Part shown: positions 3,301 through 56,349 of the stretch, piece by piece
Position numbering within the stretch: the stretch's first letter is position 1
Layout: each line of letters begins with the position of its first letter
IMG/VR virus record: IMGVR_UViG_3300025849_000016
Coordinates: 42,705-106,704 of that record
DNA length: 64,000 bases
Direction: 5' to 3' (one strand)
Source: a virus
Program-made: the position numbers and the translations under genes
Notes under the pieces: generated by a model
The model's database searches: none
The model's input: the letters and a program-made list of their open reading frames with translations, nothing else
What the model was told of the DNA's origin: nothing

Positions 3301-6300
3301 TCAGATAGCATTGTTTGGATAAGAATATCCTGCTCCCCAAATTATTCTTATAACTCCTCTTGAACCAGAAGCTCCGAAATCGTCTGGTATACCATTACTG
3401 TTTCCTCCTGATGAGCCGCCGCCACCGCCTCCAAATTCTCCACCTGTAGCGCCACCGTTAGCGCCGCCAGATCCACCTGTACCGTTTTTGTCTGACGTGT
3501 AAGAACCCGAAGCACCTTGTGTACCTGCGTTACCGCTAGTACCGACACCATTTACTCCAACACCACCGCCGCCACCGCCGGTAGTTGGATCATAATAACC
3601 CTGGCCGTATGAAGTATAATAAAAGTTTGTAGACTCGTGGGCGCCACCGCCTCCGCCACCTGACCCATTGCCTGGATTAGACGATACTTTGCCTGCGCCG
3701 GCGCCGCCGTTTCCTTGATAGCCTCCAGCGCCGCCACCTCCGCCACCACGTTGTCCGTCTGTGTCGCCTCCGTTGCCGCCAAAACCTCCGCCATAATTAT
3801 TAGTTTGTGCATCAGATGAGTAAACAAGAGTAGTGCCTCCAAGGCCGCCATTACTACTATTACCACCAGTACTTGTAGTTGGTGGAGTAAAAGTGTCCCA
3901 TGTCTGTCTACCACCACCGCCGCCTTCGGCTCCTAGTAAAATAGTACTTCCTCTTTTAATTGAACTATCGCCGCCGTCACCGGCTGCAGGTAAAGAAGCA
4001 GCTCCAGCACTACCTCCTGCACCAACAGTAAGTGATAATGTTTCACCTGGAGTAACTGAAATTGATTCTGCCCAAGCTAGGGCGCCGCCACCTCCTCCTC
4101 CGCCTGAACCTGTGTTATTAATACCGTTTGTGCCTGCTGTAGCATGGCCTGCACCTCCGCCTCCGCCGGCAATGACTACTGCACTAATACTAGTTACGCC
4201 TCCAGGAACAACCCATTCTTGAGAAGTAGTAAATGTTTGTGTTCCTGTAGACGGAGTTTCACTTGTATCATTTATTGTTATATTAGATGAATTAAAAACA
4301 TTACTATCAGGATCTGTTACTGTTATTTTAAAATTTTCAACTCCTTCAGAAACAGCATCATTTGATATCGGAAGCTGAATAGTTGATGTGTATCCGTATT
4401 GACTTGTATTTACTTCTGGTGCAAATATCCCTGACAATGCAACTATAAAATCAGAATTATCTATTCCCGTTCCGGATACAGCCCATGAATGTGTTCCGTT
4501 TGTTGCACAGTCAATATTAGCAAATACAATCGATCCTTCGTCATATACTAACGGAGAAATTCTAAATTCAACTGTTGGTTTTATAGTAAGTTCGTCAGAA
4601 GTAAATACAGTATTTCCTAAATTATTGACTATACTTACTGTAAATGTATCTTCAGAAATTTCTGCATCTGCTACTGTTTCTAATGTAAATGATCCGCTAT
4701 TGCCTTGAAGATAAAACGGTTCACTTTGTAAAGATTCTGAAACAATATCTATTTGCCCGGACATACTAGAATGTGTGCCGCATTGATAAAATAATCTAGA
4801 AGGTGCAGTATTAGGTACTGTAAATTCTAATACACCTGATGTTACACCTTGTCCTGTTATACCTGAGGAATACAAATTTCCATTTCCGGTTACCTGATCT
4901 GTTTTAATATAAAATGGATGTGTAGGAGTATTTACTGAAAATCTATAAGTTCTTCCTCTAATAAGTGTTAAAACTGGATTGTTAAAATTAAGTAATCCGT
5001 TTCCAGTAAAAGTATAATAATCACTTAATGTATTAACTATGTTAAACGTAATAGGTAAAGTTGTGTCTCTATAAAAATCAAAATTAGAAGTTGAAATATG
5101 ATTAATTAAATAAAAGTATGTACTACCAGATATAACGCTTTCGGTTGTAACTGTTGCAGATATTGACTGGCCTGCTCTAAATATAGTATCTGAAAAATTA
5201 ACACTAATTGTAGGTTCTTCATTGTCTTCAATTAATGTTAAATCAATACTAGTAACGTCATTGAGCTCGTATAATAAGCTGGGATTATAAATTGTAAATG
5301 TTGCTACAGCATTACCAATATATACATCTGTTTGCTCTGTTTCTATAGTAATTACTAATTGATTTTCTCCTGTAACAAATCTAGATATACCGCTTGTGCC
5401 TATAAATCTATTGTCAGTATTAGTTAATGACCAAGCAATTGTCGGAGTATCTGTTAGAGAACTTATACCATCTACAAGATGTTCTCGTTCTAATGTAATA
5501 GTAAATGTTGATCCTTCATTAACAGAAATATTAGGAGTTACAATAGTCATAGTTTTAATTTCAGATATTGTATCATTTATTCTTACATTACAAACATTAT
5601 TATTAATATCAATTATATAATTATTTGTTGCACTTAATATTCTAATAGTATTAAAAGTCGATGTTTGTAAACCTGGTTCTGAACTAATCGGAATACTAAT
5701 TGAATTAGTTAATGACGTTCCTAAAATAGTCACAATTCCACTAGTAACAGAAACTCGATCATCGTTAAGAGCTGTACCGAAGCTCCAAGATATATCTGTA
5801 GAATCAGATGGTGTTGTGTCTAATCCGTTTCTTTTAAATATTCTAGTAAGATCAATATTACCTGTAGTGCCTTCTGTTAAAATTACAGAACTTTCAACTC
5901 TAATTAATTTATATAAATTATTTATTGTGATAATACTATCTCCTAAAACAGTATATCTTGAATCGTTAATCGATGTAATTTCTATAATATTTGTTATACT
6001 AGCAGCATCTGTATTTTGTGGATTAACTGAAACTATAAAAGAAGCTTCTGATTGACCTGCTGGAATAACTGTTGAACCAGTAGTACTAGACCACCGACTA
6101 TCAGCTACATCCCCTACATTTTCTCCTCTAATAGCCCAATACACTGTTACAGGTTTTGATAAATCTGTAGTACCGTTTCTAATAGATGTACGCAATAAGG
6201 TAACAGTTAAACTATTACCTTCATCAACCGAATAGGTAGTAGACAGGAAACCTATTTCTCTTATTGGTTGATTAGGATTACTTTGAACACCTAAACTTAG

Positions 6301-40175: not shown

Positions 40176-43100
40176 TTATACGCCTTCTAATATTGACAAA
40201 CTGCTAACACTTTGCCCTGCTGTTAATGCTATTCTAATTAACACAACGTTACCAGTTGTGCTTGTAGTACTTACTGTTCCTAAAGTCATTTGATAGTTTC
40301 CACTTAAACTAGTACCTGTTCCGATTATATTTGCTGGACCGTCTGCAACTCCATCACTAGTGTTGCCTCCAGTGCCTGAACCAGGTTTACCATTTCCGCC
40401 ATATGGAGTGCTACAATCTAACCAACCATTTAGACCGCTGGTTGTATCTGTATCACTGCCTGGTAATGCTAACCACATACCTGCAATTCCGCTTGATGAA
40501 ATATTAATTCTAAACTTACTTACTGCACTTCTTCTAAATGCCATTGTAAAATATTGTGTGCCAGTGTCACCACTTCTATCAGGACCTACTGGTAAATATG
40601 AGCTATAATTTTCTACATTATGCTCTAACACACCTAAACGTATAGTTGCTTCTTGAGTACCTTCTACGCCAGGATCAGTTGATTCTGTGTACGGATTATT
40701 TGTATAGAAATTTGTACTATTAACATATGCTGGATTATCAGTTGTTGCTGCATTAAAATCAAATATTCTTACAGCATCATCAGTGTGTGTAGAACCTAAG
40801 CTGTTTGAAACACTAATTGCAATTTCACTTATTCCAGTTTGTGCAGCAGTGTGTACAGCAATTTTTTCACTTTGTGCTTGGTAATCGCCGTAGCCGTTAA
40901 CATTTAATCCTCTTGTGCGTAATTGTTCAACTGTACGAACTGAGCTAGATGTAATATTAATATCAACTGGTCCTATTGAATAAGGTGTACCATTACCTGT
41001 ATTTGCATTTGGTATTCCGCCTGTTAAAAATGTTGTTGCTCCGTCAATTAATGCATATGAATATGACTGAGGTGATGTAATAGCACTTTGACTTGTTCCT
41101 TCAAGATTTGTTCCGCTTTCTACAGTAAACGGACTTGGTGTATCCATATATGTTTGGCCAATCCAATCATCTATTGTAACACCCGATAATGTTATTACTG
41201 GAGATCCAGTATTATAATATGGAACTCCACTAATATATCTATAAGTACCTGCTGTTTTTTCTGCTATTGTTCCTTCAGTTACAATAGGTGTATCAGTCAT
41301 TGTATCTTTAACAAATTCTACCAAGTTTGTATCTCCTGTAGCAGTATGGCTTAATTGAAATGTGTTTATTCCTACGCTTGTACTATTTGTTGCTTTTTTA
41401 ACTCTAGCTTTAAATCCTGAATATAATGCAGGATGGTATATACTACTACCAAAACTTGTACTACTTCCGCTTGCATTTAATAAATTATAATCTGATTCTT
41501 CTGTTAAGTCAAGAGCGCCAATATGCGCTGTATCGTCTCCTGATGATAAAGTTATAGTACCATCGTTAGCACCATTTACTTTTGCGTGTAGTGTACCTGC
41601 ACTAGCATTGTATGCAAATGTTGGTATAATACTACTTTCGATAAATCCAGTTGTTGCAGTATTTCTTTGGACATCATCACCAGCAGTTAATGTACTAGAT
41701 CCATTTGAATTATCAGTAGCGCCTGCTGCTAGTTTCGGACTTGAACCGCTTGGTATTGCTAAGGAAATTGTTTTTGTACTTAACCCTTGCGGTGCTGCAA
41801 TGTTTGGGTCATATACTTTTAAAGTTGTAGTTGTTGACATTGGAAATAATGCAGGTGTTGCTGTTGTATGTGTTAACAATTGCAATGTTAAAGTATCTGA
41901 TCCTGTTCCAGTAGCAGTGCCGCCTGCCCATGTATGTTGTAATCTACTTCCTGCTACACCGCCAGCGGCTGCATCACTTGCAATGCTATCATTTGAACTT
42001 CCGTCACCCCAATTCATAGAATAAGTTACATCTGCCATTGAAGTATTTGTAGTTAGATTTTCTAAATATAAACTATCGCCTTCAATAACATACTTTTCAT
42101 TGCCAGTTAATGCACTTCCTCCAGTTGATGCATTATAAAGACTAAATGCCATTACAGGATCTGCTGTGTAAATTACGATGTAATCGGTATTAGTTGCACT
42201 TGCTTCACTACCGTATCCACTACCAGAATTATTAAAAGCACGTACTACAACTGTATAAGGTGATCCTGCATTACTTGTATAAGTGTGGCTCGGTGTGTTA
42301 TCTGAAGTAGCTGACGTTGTATTACCGTCGCCCCAGTCAATATCATATCTATTTGAATTGCCATCAACTGTTAAACTAAGAGTAACAGTTGTTCCTTCGC
42401 CTCCAGCTTGTGGTGATGCACTAAATGTTACACCTCTAACAAATGTATCGTTTGCTACATTAAACATTGTTTCGTTAAGTTGATCTAATGCTTCTGCAAT
42501 GTTGCCGCTTGCTGATAACTCTTTGTAAGCACCATCTGCAAATCCGCCATCTGATGGTGCACCTAAAGTAATTTGATTACCAATTTGTGAACCACTTACT
42601 AACGATACTTCGCTATCAACATATGCTTTAACACTTTGTTGTGTAGGTATAGCTGTTGCACTATCACTTACTAGATCATCTTCATCTAAAATTGCATCAA
42701 CTTCTGTAGTATTTTCAATGTTAAATCTACCAATAACTTCTACTGCACCTGTTCCTGCTGCTTTTAGTTCTAAAGCCGAATTTGTATTGCTAGTTGCAAT
42801 TGTGTTATCAGTAATTGTAATAGACGGAGTAATAATATCTCCATCTACATTAATATTTGATCCGACTGTGACAGTTTGTGTTGTTTCAATTGTTGTAGCT
42901 GTAATTGCTGCTGTATCAACATCTGATAAGATTGTAGTACCTGTAACATTAAATGTGCCTTCAATAGTTGTATTAGCTTTTAGTTCTATTTCGCCTGTTC
43001 CCGAAACACCTAATTGCAAGTTACTATTTGATTCAGTAGTTTGAATCAAATTTCCATCAATTCTAATATCGTCAAGTATCAAAGAACCTGCATTTATTTC

Positions 43101-53214: not shown

Positions 53215-54183
53215 TTAAAATATTAGTGCAAACAATGCAGCAGTTTTTCTACTTACAAGGTCGCCTTGTCTAGTTGGTGTTATAAATTTTAGTCCTGTAT
53301 CTTTTACATCAGCTTCATCATGATATATTTTTGAACCTGCAGATGGAGAAGCAGGTGCACCAGCACCATTTTCATCTATATGTAACGAATCTGGTATACG
53401 AACACTACCACCTGCTGTGCCAACTAGAACTAAATCGTCACCGCTATTTGTTGAAGAAATTGTGCTTCCTTCAAATTTAAGATCATACATAAATGCTTCT
53501 GCTGTACCTACAACTAAACGATTAAACCCGTCTACTTGTAATCTACATACACTCGGTACTGCTGTATTGTCAAAATCTTCAGCTGCTACTAGTGTATCAC
53601 CTTGTCTAATTTGTGACGGAGGGTTCTGTCCTGAAAATTGTGTAACATAATCAACTACCCATTTACTATTAGGTATGTCATCGTCATCTACAACATAGTT
53701 TTCATAGTCAGCGGCGGCGGCACGTAATGGATTATTACCTGCATCAAATTGAATTGCTCCGCCGCCACTGTCTATACTGTTTGTTTGAATACCAGCAATG
53801 CTTGAAAGACCATTGCTGTCAACTTTTTTAAAACTAAATGCACCTAAACCTTGTGTACCAGTTACGTCATCTTCGTATGGTGCTGATTCGTCCCATACCA
53901 TCATAGCATCAGGCAAACTGCCTCTTACAATTTGTAATCCTGACCACTGCTGAACTCCTACTCCAGGTGTAACACCTGCACCAGTTTCTCCGTAGTTAAC
54001 TCTAACGATGCGATCTTCTACATCTAGTTCTGTTGTATTCAATGTTGTTTGTTCACCTTGGACTAACAAATCACCTGTTATAATAACTTGACCCTCATCT
54101 ACGCCTGTGTTTAACGTAATGTTACCGCCTGGCTGTACTGCAATTTTATAATTACTATTAGGTATATCAAGTATTTTAGTCAT
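53215..54183 (-). CDS. Hypothetical fibre-related virion protein (322 aa)
   Basis: GDLLVQGEQTTLNTTELDVEDRIV motif is shared with repeats in the giant fibres; hydrophobic C-terminal end TAALFALIF. Confidence 0.75.
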   Translation of the reverse strand: MTKILDIPNSNYKIAVQPGGNITLNTGVDEGQVIITGDLLVQGEQTTLNTTELDVEDRIVRVNYGETGAGVTPGVGVQQWSGLQIVRGSLPDAMMVWDESAPYEDDVTGTQGLGAFSFKKVDSNGLSSIAGIQTNSIDSGGGAIQFDAGNNPLRAAAADYENYVVDDDDIPNSKWVVDYVTQFSGQNPPSQIRQGDTLVAAEDFDNTAVPSVCRLQVDGFNRLVVGTAEAFMYDLKFEGSTISSTNSGDDLVLVGTAGGSVRIPDSLHIDENGAGAPASPSAGSKIYHDEADVKDTGLKFITPTRQGDLVSRKTAALFALIF

Positions 54184-54204
54184 TAGTTATTCCTATAAAC
54201 AAAC

Positions 54205-54585
54205 TTAGCTAAATGCGTCTACTGCTGCGCCTGAATCAGCTGCACCAGGATGTACGCCTGCTGCCCAACGAACTTTACCAACATCTGTTGTTCCGCCTTC
54301 ATACTGAATTTTTCTACCGTATAAACGTGTAACTTGTACTGTTGTTGAATCATCTAAAACAGCATCAATTCGCATTTCACCAGCAACTAATGCAGCATTA
54401 GCTTTGTTAACTAATGTTAATACTTCTGTTGTTGAGCCATTTGTAACTGTAAATTTATTTGATGATCTTTGGTTTACAATCCATGCATCAGTTGTTGCTT
54501 CTGAGCCACCTGTAAAAAAGTGACGAGTCACTTTAATTGATCCTGCATCGTTGCCAAAATATTTCTTATTTAGTGGTCTTCCCAT
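54205..54585 (-). CDS. Hypothetical protein (126 aa, MGRPLNKKYFG...)
   Basis: Start moved from GTG 54669 to ATG 54585, which has an AAAGGAG SD; the upstream 84 nt form a structured leader. Confidence 0.8.
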   Translation of the reverse strand: MGRPLNKKYFGNDAGSIKVTRHFFTGGSEATTDAWIVNQRSSNKFTVTNGSTTEVLTLVNKANAALVAGEMRIDAVLDDSTTVQVTRLYGRKIQYEGGTTDVGKVRWAAGVHPGAADSGAAVDAFS

Positions 54586-54670
54586 TTGTTTCTCCTTTAA
54601 AAACGTTCTAGGTTTACGCAGTAGGTCAATTCTGCATAAGTCCGTATCATACGGCACGATTATCGACACT
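54586..54670 (-). promoter_or_regulatory. Pseudoknotted three-way-junction 5' leader
   Basis: Hairpins CCGUA-UGA-UACGG and UUAUGCAG/CUGCGUAA; loop AUUGAC can pair with 5' GUCGAU; begins right after TAAATAC (54673-54678). Confidence 0.5.
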
Positions 54671-54672
54671 AG

Positions 54673-54678
54673 TATTTA
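54673..54678 (-). promoter_or_regulatory. T4-like late promoter core (GATAAATACTAG)
   Basis: Immediately downstream of terminator 54688-54720. Confidence 0.6.
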
Positions 54679-54687
54679 TCAAATAAG

Positions 54688-54720
54688 AAAAAAGCCTTAA
54701 CAAATAAATGCTAAGGCTTT
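54688..54720 (-). terminator. Rho-independent terminator closing the ncRNA unit
   Basis: AAAGCCUUAGCA-loop-UGUUAAGGCUUUUUU. Confidence 0.75.
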
Positions 54721-54931
54721 AAATAAAAGTGATAGGTTGGACTCTGAGAATACCAACAACCTCCTAGTAGCTCTCGCATAATTCGGAGGAGCCTAGTATC
54801 GGATAGTTACTTCCAAAAACATATCTTTGTATCTCTACACTCATATGTTGCTACTACAGCTACTAGCCAAGTTGTGTCACTACGCAACACCGTTCCTTGC
54901 ACTATCTAATCTAAACCGTCGTTTAGCTTAT
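54688..54931 (-). ncRNA. ~240-nt structured ncRNA, manA-motif-like
   Basis: Has its own sigma70 promoter and terminator. Closing helix GAUAG/CUAUC, several internal stems and pseudoknot complementarities. The 3' element UGUUGGUAU...UCCAACC resembles my recollection of the manA RNA 3' end. Confidence 0.6.
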
Positions 54932-54937
54932 GTATTA

Positions 54938-54966
54938 AATATAACAAACTATTAAGCAGAAGTCAA
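54938..54966 (-). promoter_or_regulatory. Host sigma70-type promoter (TTGACT-17 bp-TATATT, extended -10 TGn)
   Basis: -35 at 54961-54966, -10 at 54938-54943, A/T-tract UP-like element upstream. Confidence 0.75.
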
Positions 54967-55050
54967 CCTCTTTTTTAATAAAAAGTTAATTTTTTTTATG
55001 TGGTGCTGTTTAATGATTCGTTGAAAGCACCAAAGCGTGTAATTATCCAT
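54952..55050 (-). CDS. 32-aa basic peptide MDNYTLWCFQRIIKQHHIKKINFLLKKRLTSA downstream of the glutamine riboswitch
   Basis: Strong GAGGAG SD 6 nt before the ATG; below the ORF-track size cutoff. Confidence 0.55.
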   Translation of the reverse strand: MDNYTLWCFQRIIKQHHIKKINFLLKKRLTSA

Positions 55051-55075
55051 AACACTCTCCTCGTTAAAGGGTTAA

Positions 55076-55120
55076 GTGCGTTCCTTCGCTTATGCTACTC
55101 CCGGCCTGTTGGCTGAACGT
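55076..55120 (-). ncRNA. glnA-type glutamine riboswitch (glutamine-I)
   Basis: ACGUUC-A-GCC(AACA)GGC-C-GGGAGUA-GC(AUAA)GC-GAA-G-GAACGCAC: P1 CGUUC/GAACG, P2, E-loop AGUA/GAA, P3 and the 3' CGC of the glnA motif. Confidence 0.8.
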
Positions 55121-55125
55121 AATAT

Positions 55126-55131
55126 TATTTA
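55126..55131 (-). promoter_or_regulatory. Late-promoter core (CTAAATAATATT) ahead of the riboswitch
   Basis: TAAATA 5 nt downstream of the capsid terminator and 5 nt upstream of the aptamer. Confidence 0.5.
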
Positions 55132-55136
55132 GTCAT

Positions 55137-55163
55137 AAAAATAGGCGCCGTAGCGCCTATTTT
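55137..55163 (-). terminator. Rho-independent terminator of the major capsid gene
   Basis: AAAAUAGGCGC-UACG-GCGCCUAUUUUU perfect stem with a UNCG loop. Confidence 0.85.
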
Positions 55164-55182
55164 AAAGTTTGTAAGTTAAATC

Positions 55183-56349
55183 TTAACTAAAAGATACGTT
55201 ACCGTTAGTAATAGCAACTTTACCTAAGTAATCAGCTGCGTTACCAAGCGATGACGCTGTGTTTGATAGTTCAACATAACCATAACGTGTCATAAATGAT
55301 ACGACTGGCTCGAATGAATTTGGATCAAGTACAACACCTGAACTCATTAGCGGGATGTATGGGCAGTAGAACGCCGGAGCGTCTGACTCTGAACCACCTT
55401 TGTAGCCAATAAGAACGTCTGTGCTGTCTGCTGCATATGAATCTACATACACTTTCATTGCGTTGTTTAATGTACCAACGAATTTTGTGTTTGTAGGTGC
55501 TTCAAATGCACCTTCAGTTGTACGAGCAAATGCACTTGTAGTTGCAGACTGTAGGATTGTTAATGCAAATGGGCTAACCACTGCATAGTTACCTGCGCCT
55601 CTGCGTGTACGCTGAGCAATCTCGTTTGCAACTTTGTTGACTTGTACTGCTAATGCAGCATGTTCGTCACCAACAAATGTTGCTGTACCTGAAACAGCAG
55701 CTTGATCATAAGTCTGTGTTGCGTTTCCGGCTAATGCACGTAGTGAAGCAAGAACTTCTTGGTCGATCTCAGCAGTAATTTCTTGTGCTAGAGCAGCCAT
55801 AATTTCAGCTTCGATATCAATACCGTGCTGTGCTTGTGCATCTTGTGCAGATTCAAAAGTCCAACGAGCTGATAGCTTGCGAGTTTTTGCTTCTACAGTT
55901 TGCTTTAAGATCTGGATGCTTAGTCTGTTACCAGCTTCACCTTCCATTGATCCTGTTGAGCTAGGTGCACCATTTGAAGATGGATTGCCTGAATAGCTCT
56001 CAGCAATTTTGAATGGGCTTAGAGCCTCTTCACCTGCTGTTGCGCCGTTATTGCCATCGGCATAACGTACACGTAGTGTGTGGATCTGACCCACTGGTCC
56101 TGTCATTGGCTGTACGCCAACTAGTTCGTTTGCGATGACTGTTGGCATCACACGACGAATGACTGGTAGAATAACACGGTTAAGTGTTGCGACATTACCG
56201 GCAGAAGTAGCACCAGCTGTTGCACTTTCTGAAAGATACCTACGAGTATTTTCCAGTGTGCTTTCCATTACAGCTTTCTTGTTTCCAGTTAAACCTTCAA
56301 CAAGAGCGGTTTTAGTTTCCTGCCAGCGACTTTCTAGTAGTTCTGACAT
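55183..56349 (-). CDS. gp23: Major capsid protein, T4 gp23 family (388 aa)
   Basis: GVQPMTGPVGQI, TVEAKTRKLSARWTFESAQDAQAQHGID, FYCPYIPL and TRYG motifs; synteny after gp21 and gp22. Confidence 0.95.
   Translation of the reverse strand: MSELLESRWQETKTALVEGLTGNKKAVMESTLENTRRYLSESATAGATSAGNVATLNRVILPVIRRVMPTVIANELVGVQPMTGPVGQIHTLRVRYADGNNGATAGEEALSPFKIAESYSGNPSSNGAPSSTGSMEGEAGNRLSIQILKQTVEAKTRKLSARWTFESAQDAQAQHGIDIEAEIMAALAQEITAEIDQEVLASLRALAGNATQTYDQAAVSGTATFVGDEHAALAVQVNKVANEIAQRTRRGAGNYAVVSPFALTILQSATTSAFARTTEGAFEAPTNTKFVGTLNNAMKVYVDSYAADSTDVLIGYKGGSESDAPAFYCPYIPLMSSGVVLDPNSFEPVVSFMTRYGYVELSNTASSLGNAADYLGKVAITNGNVSFS

Follow-up and report, generated by a model that had tools for sequence, protein, structure and literature searches.

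What does an RNA of the glutamine riboswitch class control in a large phage, directly downstream of the major capsid gene? The question is raised by a stretch of 64,000 nucleotides, here called the window, which spans positions 42,705 to 106,704 of the IMG/VR viral record IMGVR_UViG_3300025849_000016 (parent contig 106,704 bp, CheckV completeness ~31%). A first-pass annotation, made from the letters of the window, had described on the minus strand a capsid terminator, a TAAATA motif, a 45-nt element of the glnA type, a GAGGAG Shine-Dalgarno sequence (SD) and an open reading frame (ORF) of 32 codons, and all of these lie where it placed them. Our analysis indicates that they probably make up a self-contained late unit, in which a terminator is followed by a late-type CTAAATA promoter, a glutamine ON switch, a ribosome-binding site (RBS) and a 32-codon gene for a basic peptide. 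In the order of transcription, the parts are as follows (MFE, minimum free energy).

55137-55163, minus strand: terminator-like hairpin (GC-rich stem, 4-nt loop, T-run) closing the capsid transcript, from direct reading of the sequence
55126-55132, minus strand: CTAAATA, T4-type late-promoter-like element; its TAAATA ends 6 nt before the CGUU of stem P1
55075-55121, minus strand: glutamine riboswitch aptamer, glnA RNA RF01739, found by Rfam cmscan; the 45-nt element is 55076-55120
55074-55079, minus strand: 3' tail GCACUU, the anti-SD strand, paired with 55052-55057 in the MFE fold (duplex -6.2 kcal/mol)
55067-55070, minus strand: CCUU, inner helix strand, paired with GAGG of the SD (55059-55062) in the MFE and centroid folds
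55057-55062, minus strand: SD GAGGAG, 6 nt upstream of the ATG, fully paired in the ligand-free fold
55052-55057, minus strand: GAGUGU, partner strand of the tail, overlapping the last G of the SD and ending 1 nt before the ATG, from the MFE fold and conservation
54952-55050, minus strand: basic micropeptide ORF of 32 codons (ATG at 55048-55050), from same-length orthologues and substitution ratios

The assignment of the RNA is straightforward. When the whole 64-kb window was run through cmscan, RF01739 scored 42.3 bits against a gathering score of 35 (E = 7.6e-6) and was matched over model positions 1-53 of 53. It is the sole family above its gathering score in the window and is present as a single copy in the 106.7-kb parent contig. 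The covariance-model search that the first-pass annotation had suggested for its glnA-type call thus bears the call out. The Downstream-peptide family RF01704, the type-2 glutamine riboswitch, gave no match even at E <= 10 in 54100-55400. The aptamer consists of P1 (CGUUC/GAACG), a P2 of 3 bp, a P3 of 2 bp and an AGUA/GAA core, and both the minimal stems and the GGGAGUA in place of GGAAGUA read exactly as first described. In an RNAalifold analysis of 32 diverse phage copies, the window included, P1 is invariant and all five P2/P3 pairs (5/5) show compensatory changes. Of the invariant positions in the junction core, which reads CGGAAGUA 5' and GAAGGAACGC 3' with its E-loop-like AGUA/GAA, the window matches all but one. 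As far as sequence and covariation can tell, the element is a genuine member of class RF01739; with a G at one normally invariant position, it may bind glutamine.

Glutamine-dependent ON control has been shown for this riboswitch class (Klahn et al. 2018, PMC6212724). When glutamine binds, a C directly 3' of P1 enters a long-range G-C pair, and a short helix in that region melts. For the gifB leader, whose dissociation constant for glutamine is ~2 mM, it has been postulated that this C and its neighbours pair with the RBS until the ligand binds (PMC6212724). In the window, the C at 55078, directly after GGAACG, occupies the long-range 'linchpin' C position of the class and lies within the GCACUU:GAGUGU helix. 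The unliganded MFE fold of the leader buries the whole RBS, and the pairing of CCUU represents an extra sequestration of the SD that is particular to the linker of this lineage.

In the mechanism that we propose, GCACUU 3' of P1 would pair in the absence of ligand with GAGUGU by the start codon, and CCUU with GAGG, leaving the RBS buried and no peptide made. At high intracellular L-glutamine the aptamer would fold and draw the tail C into the long-range G-C pair; the sequestering helix would then melt and the ribosome could initiate. Such a switch would act on translation and be ON with ligand, in line with the proposal for the gifB leader of Synechocystis, and the peptide product would act on a host or phage target late in infection. 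An ON polarity is supported by a SAR116 genome, in which the same platform precedes a gene whose product begins with the GATase_2 domain of glutamate synthase, because glutamate synthase consumes glutamine.

Comparative evidence for the sequestering helix comes from two scans of viral sequences. A 17-nt word spanning the aptamer 3' end and the linker was found in at least 120 contigs, and a second scan, for aptamers with other tails, added at least 120 more. Across the copies found with the 17-nt word, the partner strand is conserved as (G/A)GAGUGU-N-AUG. The second scan yielded tail variants in which tail and partner covary naturally, and phage Mosig adds a sixth pair:

tail CACUU, partner beside the SD GAGUG
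tail CAUCU, partner beside the SD AGAUG
tail CAAUCU, partner beside the SD AGAUUG
tail CACCU, partner beside the SD GGGUG
tail CAUCUC, partner beside the SD GAGGUG
tail CUCUUU (phage Mosig), partner AAAGGAG, with a compensatory P1 (CGUUU/AAACG) as well

We next consider the ORF itself. It has same-length orthologues in six sibling contigs and in phage Melnitz, peptide length is constant within classes, and the substitutions are mostly conservative. The ratio of nonsynonymous to synonymous polymorphism (pN/pS) is 0.30 in frame for the window subclass, a value that rests on only four distinct sequences, and 0.47, 0.28, 0.28 and 0.29 in the other peptide classes, whereas both shifted frames give 1.05-1.57. 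The basic, unannotated 32-amino-acid ORF noted at first pass is therefore conserved and evolves under purifying selection (pN/pS ~0.3 against >=1.05 in the shifted frames), and by this measure it is a real gene.

The encoded peptide has an isoelectric point of 10.3 and a net charge of ~+6. Its maximum 18-residue Kyte-Doolittle window is 0.03, with no membrane segment and no amphipathic moment. AlphaFold2, run on a family alignment that left out the Melnitz GenBank peptide, predicted a single alpha-helix over residues 3-31 (predicted local distance difference test, 91.8). All peptides were also compared with one another by phmmer, decoys included (2419 real edges, 20 decoy edges), and this places the window peptide in a cluster of 40 distinct phage peptides of 31-46 amino acids, to which the unannotated Melnitz ORF also belongs. 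Searches of family databases were negative. Neither the window peptide nor any of nine further phage peptides linked to riboswitches matched Pfam, DUF4278 included, at E <= 10; NCBIfam gave no match for any of the ten either, and the window's 32-residue sequence has no YRG motif. No relative of the peptide was found in PHROGs, in PDB profile searches or in the ESM Atlas, and tblastn against cultured phage genomes gave no match at E <= 5. Only the 57- and 63-residue peptide classes match a PHROG (phrog_32989). We also considered treating the 32-, 50- and 63-residue peptides as one family, given a short basic block that they share, and dropped the idea at an hhalign probability of <1%. Judged by these comparisons, the window peptide belongs to an undescribed family of 31-46-residue phage peptides.

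Is the unit transcribed on its own? T4-type late promoters have the consensus TATAAATA, which the CTAAATA site resembles. The first-pass annotation had pointed to TAAATA ahead of the aptamer, and its placement turns out to be conserved: of 185 distinct copies, 102 have the motif ending 3-12 nt (mode 6) upstream of the aptamer, compared with 0.56% at random positions, an enrichment of ~100-fold. In sibling loci TAAATA often follows a terminator hairpin, and a hairpin with a T-run occupies the equivalent position at many of them; the hairpin at 55137-55163 was not listed by a simple terminator scanner. From its position, CTAAATA may be regarded as a putative late promoter. Melnitz-type copies have no TAAATA motif and sit directly 3' of a permuted transfer-messenger RNA (tmRNA). 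Since ARAGORN found no tRNA and no tmRNA in the window, such an arrangement does not apply here.

The type of phage can be read from the gene that the unit follows.

55183-56349, minus strand: major capsid gene, 388 amino acids (phrog_138, major head protein, E = 5.8e-102; stop codon at 55183-55185)

This gene lies directly upstream of the riboswitch module, with the prohead protease and scaffold genes further upstream. The capsid protein is ~70% identical to capsids of 290-470-kb jumbo myophages of heterotrophic Proteobacteria, namely those of GAP32, CBB, Vibrio 2.275.O, Sinorhizobium Phosso and PA5oct-like phages, whereas cyanophage capsids are <60% identical. Moreover, a sibling contig (L112) whose capsid is 85% identical to that of the window extends over 181.9 kb. 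Given the genome sizes of the capsid relatives and the length of this sibling, the owner is, on sequence grounds, an uncultured large-genome aquatic phage.

How widespread is the module, and does it always carry the same gene? The two scans together place the riboswitch-ORF unit in more than 200 viral contigs. Among the matches listed for the 17-nt word, a complete aptamer precedes the word in all except a chance match (L035) and L120, in which the aptamer is incomplete at the contig end. The conserved (A/G)GGAGAGUGU-N-AUG and a short basic ORF follow wherever the contig is long enough. The window's own peptide type occurs in six near-identical contigs among the matches listed (L009, L016, L019, L022, L030 and L099). 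Such recurrence of aptamer, linker and ORF, there and in more than 100 further contigs, shows that the RF01739 match is no chance one. At 66 loci among them, the module directly follows a capsid gene whose product is 68-88% identical to that of the window, and the gene order, where the contig extends, is scaffold, capsid, module, 126-residue gene, 322-residue gene and 112-residue gene. Seven of the nine matches to the 17-nt word in bacterial genomes are chance matches.

The slot behind the capsid gene holds peptides of 32, 33, 38, 46, 50, 51, 63 or 64 residues. Contigs L009 and L081 are 98-100% identical over 700 nt of the capsid gene up to the aptamer, their ORFs are unrelated (32 and 50 codons), and 100% identity resumes ~150 nt after the aptamer 3' end. 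The breakpoints of the swap lie within the variable stems of the aptamer and just before the promoter of a manA-like RNA described below, in this pair and also in L004, L064 and L032. Because L009 and L081 are identical on both sides and differ in the ORF, the payload is, by the sequence evidence, exchanged as a cassette. When the window is compared with L009, no part of the locus is as well conserved as the module (92-100%; capsid gene 55-92%).

Several further loci are worth recording. In the window's capsid clade, L122 (2852-2961) and L010 carry two tandem glutamine aptamers before a 50-residue ORF, where the window has one. The second viral scan (L132-L250) contains many phage glutamine riboswitches, often tandem, before other small ORFs, whose products include DUF4278-looking YRG-repeat peptides and a ~50-residue family ending in a conserved NP(F/W)Y-type motif. 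By sequence, then, the repertoire of phage payloads is far wider than the window's peptide family. A complete phage-type module (CTAAATA, aptamer and the start of an ORF of the 63-residue class) was also found at the end of L125, a 20-kb contig (PAND01000020) of a Flavobacteriales metagenome-assembled genome (MAG); it represents either mis-binned phage DNA or a hint at a host.

The riboswitch class and its presence in phages have already been published. Glutamine riboswitches have been reported in the phages Melnitz (host OM43) and Mosig (SAR11) and in pelagimyophage MAGs (Buchholz et al. 2022, PMC9004378), and have been listed for T4-like cyanophages (PMC9964418, PMC9602691). They have also been reported in SAR86 and Pelagibacter. 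In the literature that we searched, there is no description of the downstream phage micropeptides, of the covarying platform or of cassette exchange, and the peptide payload appears to be undescribed.

One close counterpart is the leader of gifB, the gene for IF17, in Synechocystis sp. PCC 6803. It belongs to RF01739, has the same P1/P2/P3 layout, stands as a 5' leader directly before a small-protein gene, and has the same proposed ON mechanism, in which glutamine binding frees the RBS from pairing with bases 3' of P1 (PMC6212724). The window differs in that its owner is a giant phage with heterotroph-infecting relatives, its leader is only ~70 nt long with minimal P2 and P3 and one A-to-G change in the core, its putative promoter is of the late-phage type whereas gifB is controlled by NtcA, and its product is a predicted 32-residue helix without DUF4278. 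The type-2 glutamine riboswitch RF01704 likewise places a glutamine aptamer directly before a conserved ORF of ~30 codons, such as the 33-codon Yfr6 ORF of Prochlorococcus MED4, and nitrogen-dependent ON regulation has been shown there (Weinberg et al. 2010, PMC2864571; Klahn et al. 2018). However, the RF01704 motif is restricted to marine picocyanobacteria and unmatched in the window, and its ORFs, unlike that of the window, are DUF4278/IF17-like.

Among these phages, Melnitz is 86.7% identical to the window over 58 nt that cover the 3' two-thirds of the aptamer, the linker, the SD and the ATG, with a 32-codon ORF of the window's peptide family following the aptamer. In contrast to Melnitz, the unit of the window has its own putative promoter and follows the capsid gene in a phage of a different type that is much larger. 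Mosig shares the order TAAATA, aptamer, SD and a small gene, here of 51 residues. Buchholz et al. read the Melnitz riboswitch as controlling a two-piece tmRNA (PMC9004378). In the Melnitz genome (L001, MZ577097) the matches to tmRNA models are followed by the aptamer (2485-2533), and the aptamer directly by an unannotated 32-codon ORF (2556-2654). Because the aptamer is thus 3' of the tmRNA and 5' of the ORF, the published reading does not fit the geometry. We also observed that the GenBank tmRNA feature (2071-2523) overlaps the aptamer, and that a 33-residue ORF on the opposite strand (2579-2680) is annotated instead.

Relatives of the unit also occur in cells. Glutamine riboswitches, mostly in tandem, were present in 13 of 101 sampled genomes of the SAR116 order, where they precede an ammonium transporter gene (amt), a glutamate synthase gene (gltB) or genes for basic peptides of 36-38 residues. 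Since amt and gltB are riboswitch-controlled there as well, the SAR116 peptide family would belong to a glutamine-responsive regulon. The peptide units resemble that of the window in combining glutamine aptamers, a tail-SD platform (CACCU/GGGUG) and a short basic peptide (e.g. L264, aptamers at 5588-5699 and ORF at 5724-5837). They differ in being cellular and stand-alone, in having mostly tandem aptamers, and in that most of their peptides have a Cys-containing C-terminal tail, which the window peptide lacks. The neighbourhood of the SAR116 micropeptide unit contains unrelated genes and no nitrogen genes. For one phage type (L106/L043), homology to the cellular peptides is clear. Aligned with the window family, the SAR116 family gave an end-to-end hhalign match with a probability of 51% (E = 1.6e-4), compared with at most 0.8% for 30 shuffled controls, which makes homology to the window peptide suggestive, not conclusive. 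A complex prediction for the SAR116 micropeptide with glutamine synthetase (GS) of the same genome scored 0.01 against a mark of 0.32, which speaks neither for nor against binding. In three SAR116-order sequences (L254, L257 and L258), tandem glutamine aptamers stand upstream of the ammonium transporter gene with a long, AU-rich and different linker, and a tail-SD helix like that of the window is not obvious there; this platform may be of a different design or of opposite polarity.

Downstream of the ORF, the window contains two further structured RNAs and the next gene:

54938-54966, minus strand: sigma70-like promoter (TTGACT, 17 nt, TATATT with TG) from a sequence scan, overlapping the 3' end of the ORF and serving the manA-like RNA
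54726-54917, minus strand: manA-like structured RNA (RF01745, 34.1 bits, below the gathering score of 55.2)
54691-54720, minus strand: first terminator downstream of the module, from a terminator scan
54583-54656, minus strand: freshwater-2-like leader RNA (RF02980, 45.8 bits against a gathering score of 49.9)
54205-54585, minus strand: next gene, 126 amino acids (ATG at 54583-54585)

Both RNAs score below threshold in the window and above it in relatives: at the corresponding position of the syntenic locus L004 a manA RNA passes its threshold, and in nine sibling loci RF02980, likewise at the matching position, exceeds the cut-off with 57-68 bits. The manA-like RNA looks like a separate RNA gene with its own promoter and terminator, not a part of the riboswitch unit, and its promoter marks the downstream edge of the swappable cassette. 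The freshwater-2-like RNA is, by its conservation, a leader of a virion-region gene. Because this leader ends at the ATG at 54583-54585, the next gene would be the one of 126 amino acids and not a 154-residue ORF starting with GTG.

Several observations weigh against reading the locus as a functional late glutamine switch. Within the window as a whole CTAAATA is not enriched (17 found, 19.9 expected), so that the promoter call is one of position, and the z-score for the fold of the whole leader is unremarkable (-0.88). Tail-SD duplexes with their own partners average -4.43 kcal/mol, compared with -3.11 +/- 0.14 after permutation (z = -9.7, none of 1000 permutations as low), but kinship among the sequences inflates these statistics, and what carries the covariation result is therefore mainly the occurrence of several different types of compensatory pair. 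The aptamer of the window lineage carries a G in CGG-G-AGUA where 31 of the 32 diverse copies have A, and its scores (42-43 bits) fall below those of the rest of the set (47-66); the affinity or even the ligand of this variant could differ. The sensing of host nitrogen status that the first-pass annotation put forward would likewise depend on glutamine binding by this variant. Together with the minimal P2 and P3, the core G raises the alternative that glutamine sensing has been lost in this lineage and that the core change has turned it into a constitutive leader or a sensor of something else. We regard such a loss as improbable. Short P2 and P3 stems are common among well-scoring phage copies, and the remaining core, P1, the AGUA/GAA pairing, the linchpin C and the sequestering helix are all intact. 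Moreover, the G variant is found in only nine copies, all of the window's peptide lineage, one of which (L104) has a compensatorily swapped P2 (GGC/GCC for GCC/GGC) and a diverged ORF. Its retention in these copies implies continued selection on the fold and suggests that the variant itself is maintained by selection, a partial counter to the objection from the core base. A different alternative would make the ORF a mere leader, whose translation tunes read-through into the manA-like RNA or the 126-residue gene while the peptide is irrelevant. Because the stretch from the ORF stop (54952) to 54691-54720 contains no terminator, the late transcript probably does run through the manA-like RNA and end there, and the order riboswitch, ORF, manA, freshwater-2 recurs. 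However, it is the amino-acid sequence that is under purifying selection, with length conserved within classes, the manA-like RNA has a promoter of its own, and switch and peptide also occur where manA and freshwater-2 do not: after the tmRNA in Melnitz-type copies, before tRNAs in Mosig, and alone in SAR116. This makes a leader-only role very improbable.

If the product of the glutamine-gated unit is the peptide, what might it do? The first possibility, raised in the first-pass annotation, is an analogue of the GS-inactivating factors IF7 and IF17, made at high glutamine to shut down host GS. In cyanobacteria, riboswitches of this class show a tight linkage to small proteins of the IF17 and IF17-like kind, and high glutamine turns them ON (PMC6212724); the window peptide is small and very basic, its family aligns with that of SAR116, and SAR116 bacteria have riboswitch-micropeptide units as well as riboswitch-controlled amt and gltB. 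Yet none of the ten peptides scanned matched DUF4278 or any other Pfam or NCBIfam family, the window peptide has neither a YRG motif nor a relative in the PDB, and YRG-repeat peptides do follow other phage glutamine riboswitches, from which the window's type differs. The SAR116 unit itself adjoins no nitrogen gene. In addition, the capsid relatives infect heterotrophic Proteobacteria, whereas GS control by inhibitor proteins has been described as unique to cyanobacteria (PMC6212724), and the Melnitz authors state that the OM43 host lacks glnA (PMC9004378), yet Melnitz has a 32-residue ORF of the same family. We therefore consider GS inactivation, an idea that draws on analogy, unlikely. The peptide could instead be a timing or lysis-linked regulator that couples a late decision, such as lysis or the late-gene programme, to nitrogen state. 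The unit stands behind a putative late-type promoter, and a link between glutamine and lysis in Melnitz was a speculation of Buchholz et al. (PMC9004378). The 50-residue peptide that replaces the 32-residue one in L081 relative to L009 has a homologue, gp47, in the Pelagibacter podophage HTVC023P (L251, 3001-3991), where it has no riboswitch, overlaps gp46 at the latter's end and stands two genes ahead of an M15 peptidase, the probable endolysin; another homologue, in Pelagibacter phage Mosig, is riboswitch-controlled. This connection is one of slot-sharing, not homology, as the hhalign probability between the 32- and 50-residue peptides is below 1%. In this clade the unit lies in the head/tail-fibre region, not in a lysis cluster, and the lack of a hydrophobic segment and of an amphipathic moment argues that the window peptide is not holin-like. 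A timing or lysis role, too, is a doubtful prospect.

A broader proposal, which we put forward tentatively and consider possible at best, is that glutamine-gated micropeptides of 31-64 residues constitute a class of effectors of nitrogen status, so far unrecognised, in marine bacteria outside the cyanobacteria (SAR116, for example) and in their phages. They would be analogous to IF7 and IF17 in function and unrelated in sequence, and giant phages would carry swappable alleles behind the capsid gene to reprogram a step of host nitrogen assimilation or of late infection when glutamine is plentiful. Phage glutamine switches consistently gate tiny unannotated protein genes, and the covarying tail-RBS helix common to phages and SAR116 provides comparative support for a mechanism so far postulated for one cyanobacterium. 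The cassette swap between otherwise identical giant-phage genomes suggests that the effectors are interchangeable or host-specific. Cultured phage-host pairs suited to testing exist in Mosig on HTCC1062 and Melnitz on H5P1. If the targets of the peptides were found, it would become clear how phages abundant in the ocean, as well as streamlined heterotrophs, act on glutamine inside the cell.

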